Assembly: GCA_964293155.1 (NCBI GenBank)
Contig: CAXYYA010000028.1
Location: forward strand, 1-48,569
Direction: 5' to 3'
Source: an uncultured Bacteroidales bacterium
Lineage (GTDB): Bacteria; Bacteroidota; Bacteroidia; Bacteroidales; Dysgonomonadaceae
DNA: 48,569 nucleotides
In this document: one piece after another, positions 36,718 through 38,161 of the stretch
Layout: each line of letters opens with the position of its first letter
Position numbering within the stretch: position 1 is the stretch's first letter
The notes under the pieces: generated by a model
Told to the model about the DNA's origin: nothing
The model's input: the letters and a program-made list of their open reading frames with translations, nothing else
Databases searched by the model: none
Position numbers and translations under genes: made by a program

Positions 36718-37293
36718 TTATCTGGTTTCGTTCCAATCGCGTCCGTAGCGATGCCGGTATCCGCGTCCCATACCGAGACTGTCGGTTCGGTTATATCCGT
36801 ATCCGTACCCGCGACGGGCATTCACCGTTTCATCGCGATACAACGGTAGGAATGCTCTTTCTAATTGAGCGCACTGCGCGTCGTTGCACGCCGATTTTAT
36901 CTTCAGGTAGAAATCGTTTGTAAGCTTTTTCAGTTCTGCGTGATGATTTCCGATGTGATCCGATAACGCATTTAATTTTGTTTCGTCGGGTTTCGGTTTG
37001 TTCAACTCCATGAACATTTCGTTTTTCAGCGAATCCATTTCGTAAATCAGCAGGTTGGCACGGGGTTGAAATTCCCGGTTCGCTGCGCGAAAAACATCCA
37101 TCTGATCATTGTCGAATCCCAGCCTTTGCCGAAAATACCTTCCGGTGAGCGGGGGCTGGCCTTCGTCAATAACAATTGCTGTGTTATCGTCTTTTTCCTG
37201 CTGATTGTGATAGACGATAGTTCCGATGGTTGTCAGGTTCAGCACCACAAGCAGTGCAATTACCCACATCATTATTTTATTCGTCTTATTCAT
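36718..37293 (-). CDS. Membrane-anchored periplasmic protein, probably LTXXQ/Spy-CpxP-like (weak)
   Basis: 191 aa with a single N-terminal TM, helical LxxxQ-type segments (NDQMDVFRAANREF, ELKKLTNDFYLKI) and a Gly/Tyr/Arg-rich tail. It overlaps the anti-sigma gene by 8 bp. Confidence 0.45.
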   Translation of the reverse strand: MNKTNKIMMWVIALLVVLNLTTIGTIVYHNQQEKDDNTAIVIDEGQPPLTGRYFRQRLGFDNDQMDVFRAANREFQPRANLLIYEMDSLKNEMFMELNKPKPDETKLNALSDHIGNHHAELKKLTNDFYLKIKSACNDAQCAQLERAFLPLYRDETVNARRGYGYGYNRTDSLGMGRGYRHRYGRDWNETR

Positions 37294-37579
37294 AATCGTC
37301 GAAATTATAATAGCCTAAATTCTCGATCTGACTGTCGTTTATGTTCATCGTAAACTCGTGAGAAACGCTTTTCTGGTAACTGTTACCGATGCTTACGCCT
37401 AAAAATGCAACGGCAGCAAGGCTGGCAGCCACAACCACAGTTTGCCAAACGGGCGTTCTGCGACGCTCCGGTTGTTGCCTTTTTTCGATTTCGGCCATCA
37501 CCCGCGTACTCAGGAACGGATTATGTTCCGTTTGCTTTTCGCGTTTGATGAAATCGTCTATGTACTGTTCCGTTTTCAT
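37286..37579 (-). CDS. Small single-TM anti-sigma factor (putative)
   Basis: 97 aa with an N-terminal cytoplasmic helix, one TM (VVVAASLAAVAFLGVSIG) and a short periplasmic tail. It lies immediately downstream of the ECF sigma gene. Confidence 0.5.
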   Translation of the reverse strand: MKTEQYIDDFIKREKQTEHNPFLSTRVMAEIEKRQQPERRRTPVWQTVVVAASLAAVAFLGVSIGNSYQKSVSHEFTMNINDSQIENLGYYNFDDYE

Positions 37580-37615
37580 TTTTTGTTCGTTTTATAGGTT
37601 AGACATTTGTATTGA

Positions 37616-38161
37616 TTATTTCCTACGGTCATATTCTAATTTTTTTTGCAGAGTGCTTTTTGCACGTTGTAAAAGTTGTTCCACAGCGCCTTCCGATTTT
37701 TTCATGACGGCGGCAATTTCTTTCTGCGGTAATTCTTCGTATTTACTCAGGATGAAAGCTGTTCGTTGCGAATCGGGCAGGGAATTGATGGCGTTTTTTA
37801 TCCGCTTGTCCCGTTCCGATTGTTCCAATCGTTCCAACGGCGTCTTTTCCTCACTCTGTTTGTGAAAGATGTTTTCCAACGATTCCACCACGCGGTTCTT
37901 CTTTTTTCGATTCACAAAATTGATACTCGCGTTTACGGTAATCCGGTACAGCCATGTAACAAATTGGGCTTCGCCCTTGAAATCGGGCAACGATTGATAT
38001 ATTTTAATGAAAACTTCCTGCGTGATATCTTCCGCATCTGCTTTGGAGTGCACAAAACCCAACGTCGTTCGGAACACCATACCCTGGTATTTCTCCATAA
38101 GTTCTTTAAAGACAATGGTGTTACCTGAAATTATTTCTTGTATGAGTTGCTCGTCCGACAT
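37616..38161 (-). CDS. ECF-type RNA polymerase sigma-70 factor (copy 1)
   Basis: 181 aa with region 2 (DAEDITQEVFIKIY...FVTWLYRITVN) and region 4 (LPDSQRTAFILSKYEELPQKEIAAVMKKSEGAVEQLLQRA). Confidence 0.85.
   Translation of the reverse strand: MSDEQLIQEIISGNTIVFKELMEKYQGMVFRTTLGFVHSKADAEDITQEVFIKIYQSLPDFKGEAQFVTWLYRITVNASINFVNRKKKNRVVESLENIFHKQSEEKTPLERLEQSERDKRIKNAINSLPDSQRTAFILSKYEELPQKEIAAVMKKSEGAVEQLLQRAKSTLQKKLEYDRRK

Follow-up and report, generated by a model that had tools for sequence, protein, structure and literature searches.

How is the sigma factor of the extracytoplasmic function (ECF) type encoded at 37616-38161 of contig CAXYYA010000028.1 controlled, and does it share its origin with a second sigma module on the same DNA? 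The contig (assembly GCA_964293155.1) comes from an uncultured Bacteroidales bacterium of the family Dysgonomonadaceae, and its whole length of 48,569 nt is here called the window. According to the original prediction, the sigma gene and the two genes behind it (36718-38161) form a module of a sigma factor, a small single-pass anti-sigma factor and a membrane-anchored helical protein of the LTXXQ/Spy type, and this module was taken for an unfused copy of the one at 24917-27440. We conclude, with a probability of about 0.7, that the genes make up a self-contained signalling cassette around an ECF sigma factor, of a kind found widely in Bacteroidales. It evolved independently of the other module, which is of the FecI/FecR type, and the two ECF systems happen to sit about 10 kb apart.

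The sigma factor and the layout of the cassette

The three open reading frames have exactly the boundaries that had been predicted, and all lie on the minus strand. The first (37616-38161) encodes a protein of 181 residues with the domains Sigma70_r2 (58.8 bits, E 5e-16) and Sigma70_r4_2 (57.9 bits, E 8e-16) and no r3 domain between them, which makes it an ECF (group 4) sigma factor, as proposed. It scores 120.1 bits against TIGR02937 (cut-off 42.9). The nearest solved structures are AlgU, RpoE and SigW (E 1e-24 to 1e-16), and CnrH is a much weaker match (E 6e-11) than AlgU/RpoE (E 1e-24).

The second gene (37286-37579) encodes a short putative anti-sigma factor of 97 residues, and the third (36718-37293) a membrane-anchored periplasmic protein of 191 residues with a CpxP/Spy/CnrX fold. 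The genes had been described as overlapping one another by 8 bp. This is correct for the second and third genes, where the start of the third overlaps the stop of the second (37286-37293, ATGAATAA), and the overlap recurs in relatives. It does not apply to the first two genes, where a spacer of 36 nt separates the sigma stop (37616) from the anti-sigma ATG (37579), and this spacer contains a conserved promoter-like motif. Behind the third gene lies a fourth (36124-36687, minus strand) for a secreted repeat protein of 187 residues, and a gene of this kind was there at all loci inspected.

Close relatives of the cassette were found by a scan with a single protein, which gave 7 loci, and distant loci were taken from contigs encoding more remote homologues. 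The order sigma factor, anti-sigma factor, sensor and repeat protein is kept in all loci inspected, which come from Petrimonas, Proteiniphilum, Paludibacter, Lentimicrobiaceae and other Bacteroidales. Domains, topology and fold matches thus uphold the proposed composition of the module, for which the evidence on the two membrane proteins is given below.

A short relative of zinc-finger anti-sigma factors

The 97-residue protein has one hydrophobic segment, at approximately residues 42-67, in agreement with the predicted single transmembrane pass, and the transmembrane part, at about residues 44-65, carries a GxxxG motif. Its sequence is identical to that of a hypothetical protein from a Petrimonas sp. 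MAG. The cytoplasmic part is a two-helix remnant (IDDFIKREK and NPFLSTRVMAEIE), and the periplasmic tail of 32 residues carries the conserved motif INDSQIENL. The protein corresponds to the C-terminal two-thirds of anti-sigma factors of the zf-HC2 type, with which it shares 36% of 86 aligned residues (E 3e-14). These relatives are 140-143 residues long and occupy the same gene position in distant loci, where the sigma factor is 48% identical to that of the window. The alignment begins at about residue 42-53 of the zf-HC2 relatives, past their HxxxCxxC motif, so that the end of helix 3, helix 4 (NPFLSTRVMAEIE), the transmembrane segment and the periplasmic tail are kept. The 36-nt spacer is too short to hold the missing part.

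An exhaustive homologue search with the 97-residue protein returned 161 representatives of 50%-identity clusters. Most members are 88-113 residues long and match end to end, and about 18 of the best 150 are of the long form and match from residue 44-55 or so. Since the 161 cluster representatives are mostly short, the short anti-sigma gene is no accident of assembly. The short form, which is the majority, always stands directly after a sigma gene. The Pfam family PF13490 is matched by none of the short members as against 8 of 11 long ones, and in the family of about 97 residues no member passes a Pfam threshold and none of those that carry a name from their source is called an anti-sigma factor. 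In an alignment of 45 sequences the periplasmic positions are the best conserved (motif INDxxIENL), with E86 invariant and D82 conserved in more than 90%. On the cytoplasmic side, the helix-4 segment NPFLxTRIMAxIE is conserved over the 161 cluster representatives.

In anti-sigma domains of class I, helices 1-3 bind sigma-4 and helix 4 binds sigma-2 with most of the predicted contacts, and in CnrY, an anti-sigma factor of class II, two helices suffice (PMC7406223). Because helix 4 carries most contacts and CnrY manages with two helices, a two-helix remnant could act as an inhibitor, and the 97-residue protein is a plausible one for the adjacent sigma factor.

A membrane-anchored protein of the Spy/CpxP/CnrX superfamily

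The third protein also has one hydrophobic segment, at approximately residues 5-29, and is thus anchored in the membrane as had been proposed. It matches Pfam Metal_resist (PF13801) with 30.4 bits (gathering cut-off 29.2) over residues 15-140, corresponding to profile positions 2-122 of 125, and its periplasmic part alone scores 21.7 bits. A phmmer search of the PDB with the third protein alone gave only noise. A family profile of 47 sequences found the LTXXQ protein STV (5ihf, E 0.013) and also ZraP (3lay). In profile searches the third protein is accordingly related to LTXXQ/Spy-type folds, by its match above the PF13801 threshold and by the STV and ZraP hits of its family.

The LxxxQ-like segments mentioned in the original prediction correspond to two LTXXQ-like motifs, L58-G-F-D-N-D-Q64 and C136-N-D-A-Q140, both of them degenerate. 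When the family was aligned with hhalign to a Spy sequence, LGFDNDQ fell on LNLTDAQ and CNDAQ on LTPEQ, in register. The AlphaFold model (pLDDT 81.7) shows a transmembrane helix followed by a helical hairpin, with helices at residues 3-37 (the predicted N-terminal helix), 62-97, 104-135 and 138-152. The top Foldseek matches of this model are almost all CnrX, NccX, ZraP, CpxP, STV and Spy. Normalised to the target, their TM-scores are 0.63-0.83. The protein ends in a disordered tail rich in Gly, Arg and Tyr, and the Gly-rich tail of ZraP is comparable.

The third protein has 88 homologues. The closer ones (43-99% identical) are, where named, called 'hypothetical protein' and come from Proteiniphilum, Fermentimonas, Paludibacter and Lentimicrobiaceae. 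Those that are 34-41% identical contain PF13801, and the names given to them are 'periplasmic heavy metal sensor' or 'Spy/CpxP family protein refolding chaperone'. In the family alignment the polar residues N19 and T25 of the transmembrane segment are near-invariant. H118 is the sole invariant histidine and no other histidine is conserved at 90% or more, D103 is invariant and C136 near-invariant. The third protein is a member of the Spy/CpxP/CnrX superfamily, and we propose for it the role of a co-sensor or modulator.

A promoter-like motif before the sigma gene and at its end

The motif CCGTAGGAAAA-N13-TTGTCTAA is present in two copies in the window, as against 0.00 expected by chance. The upstream copy (38186-38215, minus strand, CCGTAGGAAAAACCGGTCTTCGTTGTCTAA) has a -35-like box GTAGGAA and a -10-like box TGTCTAA, which ends 24 nt ahead of the sigma ATG. 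The internal copy (37599-37626, minus strand, GTAGGAAATAATCAATACAAATGTCTAA) overlaps the final codons of the sigma gene together with the stop, and its end is 19 nt short of the anti-sigma ATG. The boxes resemble the -35 (GGAA) and -10 (GTC) elements of ECF sigma factors.

The motif was compared in 14 loci, namely the window, ten other loci with the short anti-sigma gene and three loci of the zf-HC2 type. Both copies were present with the same spacing in all ten of the other short-anti-sigma loci, and the three zf-HC2-type loci all had the internal copy only, with a -10 box TTTCTAA. Altogether there were 25 instances, at fixed spacing, and none elsewhere in 160 kb. The internal copy was thus found in 14/14 loci. 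Counted from the sigma stop codon, its offset ranges from -17 to +13 nt, each of the three reading frames is represented, and in seven loci its TAG doubles as the sigma stop codon. As offset and frame vary, the internal motif is conserved as DNA and not as coding sequence.

We interpret both motifs as predicted sigma-dependent promoters. The internal one would, in our interpretation, be ancestral and drive the anti-sigma factor, the sensor and the output, and the upstream one would add positive autoregulation in the clade of the window. In one Proteiniphilum subclade (loci L008-L012) the spacer after the internal motif measures about 103 nt, compared with about 20 nt elsewhere. This longer stretch is conserved as well and might serve as a leader or a small regulatory element.

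Proposed mechanism

The analysis shows the identities, topology and homologies of the proteins and how far gene order and motifs are conserved. Inferred, in the signalling path proposed here, are the binding of sigma and anti-sigma factor, the contact between the latter and the sensor, the activity of the promoters and the kind of signal. In the resting state the short cytoplasmic domain of the 97-residue protein, a remnant of class I helices 3 and 4, would hold the sigma factor at the inner membrane. The co-translated protein of the CpxP/Spy/CnrX fold would lie beside the anti-sigma factor and touch its periplasmic tail (INDxxIENL) and its transmembrane helix. Such a complex would agree with the translationally coupled genes, with the conserved polar residues N19 and T25 in the membrane segment of the sensor, and with the GxxxG motif and conserved tail of the anti-sigma factor. 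The periplasmic helical hairpin would then perceive an envelope signal, for which a metal ion, an unfolded envelope protein and a perturbation of membrane lipids are candidates. By analogy with CnrYXH (PMC6851896), the signal would alter the complex of anti-sigma factor and hairpin, relieve the inhibition and set the sigma factor free. Free sigma factor would fire the two CCGTAGGAAAA-N13-TTGTCTAA promoters, one upstream of its own gene and the other in the spacer between the sigma and anti-sigma genes. The expected output is more sigma factor, more anti-sigma factor and sensor as a feedback, and the secreted repeat protein rich in Gly, Asp and Cys. Ferritin-like proteins of the DUF2202 family, encoded further downstream, may be produced by read-through or be co-regulated.

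Several observations weigh against this scheme. By alignment to its zf-HC2 relatives, the 97-residue protein is without helices 1 and 2 of the anti-sigma domain and without the HxxxCxxC zinc motif, which are among some 41 N-terminal residues that it lacks. It stays below every Pfam and NCBIfam threshold, and the anti-sigma family profile found no anti-sigma chain in the PDB, where CnrY (4cxf) is included, only noise from transmembrane helices. With these parts missing and neither a curated nor a structural match, the anti-sigma role rests on partial homology and gene position. Furthermore, the PF13801 match of the third protein clears its cut-off by just 1.2 bits, the distant zf-HC2-type relatives are without the upstream copy of the motif, and the metal site of CnrX is not conserved, so that metal sensing is unsupported.

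Alternative explanations

The third protein might merely be an output of the sigma factor, a membrane-tethered envelope chaperone of the Spy kind that senses nothing, with the anti-sigma factor either sensing by itself or being degraded by proteases. The fold fits the chaperones Spy, ZraP and CpxP no less well than CnrX, and the predicted internal promoter would drive the third gene together with the anti-sigma gene. The gene at the same position in Bacteroides and Phocaeicola was moreover read by its authors as a Spy-like chaperone, and it was the most induced gene (PMC13114119; bioRxiv 10.64898/2026.08.10.744002). On the other hand, a stoichiometric complex like that of CnrX and CnrY is suggested by the membrane anchor with its conserved N19 and T25, by the conserved 8-bp overlap that couples the third gene to the anti-sigma gene in translation and by the strong conservation of the anti-sigma factor's periplasmic tail. 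Spy and ZraP, for their part, are soluble. Either role leaves room for the other, as CpxP is both a chaperone and an inhibitor of signalling, and we consider an exclusive chaperone role rather unlikely. It is improbable, in our judgement, that the 97-residue protein is no anti-sigma factor at all, having lost the helices that bind sigma-4, and is only the membrane partner of the sensor, with the sigma factor controlled in some other way. The truncation and the missing curated and structural matches described above speak for this. Against it stand the majority of short forms directly behind a sigma gene, the small two-helix domain that can suffice in CnrY (PMC6851896; PMC7406223), and the helix-4 segment conserved over the 161 representatives, which in class I anti-sigma factors makes most of the predicted contacts to sigma-2 (PMC7406223).

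We regard a further alternative, the common origin put forward in the original prediction, as very improbable. It held that the cassette has the same three functional parts as the module at 24917-27440, unfused, and that duplication of a module and shuffling of its domains had produced both within a single island. An ECF sigma gene does come first in both modules and is followed by a gene for a membrane protein, and both contain short 'L-T/S-x-x-Q' motifs at helix starts. The module-2 tails also have faint matches to Pfam LTXXQ (E 0.16-0.2), but these reach 13 bits and lie below the cut-off of 24.3. A comparison part by part does not bear out the kinship. The two sigma factors are 30% identical, which is the generic level among ECF sigma factors, and belong to different clades, the one from the cassette being RpoE/AlgU/SigW-like by its best matches and the one from module 2 Bacteroidetes FecI-like (TIGR02985/FecI models). 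The anti-sigma domains are unrelated, since that of module 2 (25692-26948) is a FecR-domain protein and that of the cassette a truncated zf-HC2 relative. The third protein showed no similarity by BLASTP to the FecR tail or to the 213-residue product of 24917-25558, and the profile-profile comparison of its family with the module-2 tails by hhalign gave a probability of 0.2% over 14 columns. The FecR tail and the 213-residue product do share a paralogous segment of about 60 residues with each other (E 7e-14). The profile search of the PDB for module 2 did not find Spy or CpxP, and Foldseek found no Spy/CpxP fold for the model of the latter (best probability 0.08). This last result is weak on its own, as just one homologue of the 213-residue protein was detectable in 5.8 billion sequences and the alignment, with three sequences, was shallow and the model poor (mean pLDDT 59.6). 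Relatives carry the cassette without module 2. Base composition and GC content delimit no distinct island, and ffh and folD, which are housekeeping genes, follow closely (20730-22987, minus strand).

Two features of module 2 are recorded for their own sake. Its FecR-domain anti-sigma factor (25692-26948, minus strand) has an unusual C-terminal half rich in Lys, Glu and Gln, in which a second Pfam domain was not detected, and the genes after it (24917-25558 and 23913-24743) do not encode a SusC-like TonB-dependent transducer.

Relation to known systems

The gene order of the cassette is that of ECF281 in the ECF classification 2.0 (Casas-Pastor et al. 2021), where a zinc-finger anti-sigma factor stands at +1 and the +2 position is taken by a protein for heavy-metal resistance (PF13801; PMC7826278). 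The likeness of the window is one of architecture, in the order and in the PF13801 protein at +2. Distant relatives of the cassette, with a sensor 35-40% and a sigma factor 48% identical and with an anti-sigma factor of the zf-HC2 type, have the exact ECF281 layout, whereas the +1 protein of the window is a relative without the zinc finger. The fourth gene, the association with DUF2202 and the internal promoter are not described in the ECF281 paper (PMC7826278).

Self-regulating operons of three genes, for an ECF sigma factor, a membrane anti-sigma factor plus a Spy-like protein, were genetically characterised in 2026 in Phocaeicola vulgatus (CirY/CirZ/Spy) and in Bacteroides and Phocaeicola (BT_4647-49/BVU_2338-40). 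Deletion of the anti-sigma gene, alone or with the Spy-like gene, derepresses them, and they are induced by colitis and by perturbation of sphingolipids and not by metal chelation, heat or acid (PMC13114119; bioRxiv 10.64898/2026.08.10.744002). The cassette was compared with them by architecture, which is the same over three genes. Downstream they have a hydrolase and a LysM protein, or a chloride channel, where the window has the repeat protein and DUF2202 genes, and their signal is tied to colitis and sphingolipid flux. None of the 88 sensor homologues was named Bacteroides or Phocaeicola, which argues that the cassette is probably a lineage paralogous to the CirYZ-Spy type.

In the CnrYXH system (ECF291) of Cupriavidus metallidurans, the sensor CnrX passes its signal to CnrY, a small anti-sigma factor, and the operon is autoregulated (PMC6851896). 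The third protein resembles CnrX in its N-terminal anchor and periplasmic helical hairpin, in Pfam family and fold, and in having an adjacent small single-pass protein as its partner. The 97-residue protein likewise resembles CnrY (class II, 95 residues) in length, single pass, short cytoplasmic two-helix domain and short periplasmic tail. The gene order differs, being cnrY-X-H as opposed to sigma, anti-sigma and sensor in the window, CnrH is a weaker match to the sigma factor than AlgU/RpoE, and no efflux pump lies near the cassette. The third protein does not share the CnrX ligand set His42/His46/Glu63/His119/Met123. An hhalign alignment to a CnrX sequence that agrees with the ligand numbering in PMC6851896 placed F128 and I132 at H119 and M123, in a register that is tentative at a probability of 0.2%. 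With the ligand residues absent, a metal sensor of the CnrX kind (Ni/Co) was rejected.

The periplasmic domain also shares the LTXXQ-type helical hairpin fold with CpxP, ZraP and Spy of Enterobacteria, in which accessory or inhibitory signalling is joined with chaperone activity. Those proteins are soluble, and in the pairs CpxP-CpxA and ZraP-ZraS they act on histidine kinases of two-component systems rather than on an ECF anti-sigma factor.

Repeat protein, DUF2202 genes and flanking genes

The fourth gene (36124-36687) encodes four repeats of about 39 residues (a DNA period of 117 nt) with the pattern FVDxNxNGxCDNFENGTP, each consisting of an EF-hand-like loop with a cysteine and of a linker rich in Gly and Arg. 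Among relatives the copy number ranges from 1 to 4, with the pattern FVDxNxNGxCDNFE. In Pfam searches the small repeat proteins stayed below every threshold and had only weak matches of the EF-hand kind, and precomputed annotation lists a faint match of the window's protein to PF27309 (MJ0753_N). The repeat protein is the probable output of the cassette. Behind its gene lies a terminator-like hairpin (36079-36107, minus strand) with a stem of 12 bp, a loop of 5 nt and flanking A- and U-runs. It was found by folding (-14.8 kcal/mol, z -4.6; none of 200 shuffles folded as well) and was not picked up by a consensus terminator scan.

Next come two tandem genes for secreted ferritin-like proteins of 230 and 202 residues (34720-36025, minus strand; Pfam DUF2202, E 1e-38 and 5e-43), which are homologous to the ferritin-like protein MJ0754 of M. 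jannaschii (PDB 3q4o, E 9e-35). A DUF2202 gene also comes next after the repeat protein in zf-HC2-type relatives, and none was present at the closest Proteiniphilum loci. The DUF2202 genes are possibly an associated, co-regulated output. Given the faint MJ0753_N match in the gene preceding them, repeat protein and DUF2202 may form an old conserved pair of genes that archaea have as well.

Taken further, the family of about 97 residues might be a naturally minimised class I anti-sigma factor, consisting of helix 3b and helix 4 only and dependent on a membrane-anchored co-sensor of the CpxP fold, which from an ancestor of the zinc-binding anti-sigma (ZAS) type has converged on the class II solution of CnrY/CnrX. 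The internal promoter at the gene junction, shared by the short and zinc-finger forms, would then be the ancestral output promoter, driving a periplasmic metal-handling pair of a Cys/Asp repeat protein and a DUF2202 di-metal ferritin-like protein, a pairing that maybe echoes archaeal MJ0753/MJ0754. We offer this extension as speculation and hold it to be doubtful.

Further along the minus strand (29678-34690) lie genes for a PqqD-like protein, an ATP-grasp protein (ATPgrasp_Ter), an Orn/DAP/Arg decarboxylase and a fusion of urea transporter and Peptidase_M23. This run is kept after the cassette in Petrimonas and Proteiniphilum (locus L003, 9217-14077) and may be a small cluster for peptide modification or related to polyamines. 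In a Paludibacter locus (L018, 7347-9491) ffh and folD directly follow the four-gene cassette, but in the window they lie about 13 kb further away from it. The impression is therefore one of lineage-specific insertions over the stretch of about 23.9-36.0 kb, which holds the DUF2202 pair, the PqqD cluster, TPR genes and the second sigma module. On the other side, divergent from the sigma gene, a plus-strand open reading frame (38321-39664) encodes an Mfa-like fimbrillin fused to DUF6359. It opens at GTG, and as a Met followed by a signal-like segment lies downstream, the listed start is probably too early.

Significance

The cassette is a further and probably paralogous member of the type of ECF sigma/anti-sigma/Spy-like operon known in Bacteroidales. 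This architecture entered the catalogue of ECF systems in 2021, and experiments on gut Bacteroidales put it to the test in 2026. The direct significance of the finding is thus small, and it corrects an over-interpretation, as the two sigma modules of the window are not linked by duplication or shuffling. We found no description of the anti-sigma factor without zinc finger, the doubled promoter motif or the linked repeat-protein and DUF2202 genes in the literature compared; these traits leave the category of the system unchanged. The analysis nevertheless has useful by-products. It supplies a precise candidate promoter motif, two copies per operon, and it gives evidence that most relatives use a two-helix anti-sigma factor without zinc finger whose best-conserved residues face the periplasm. 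The linked genes for a secreted repeat protein and DUF2202 proteins are likely outputs, and they give a hint at what the pathway protects against.

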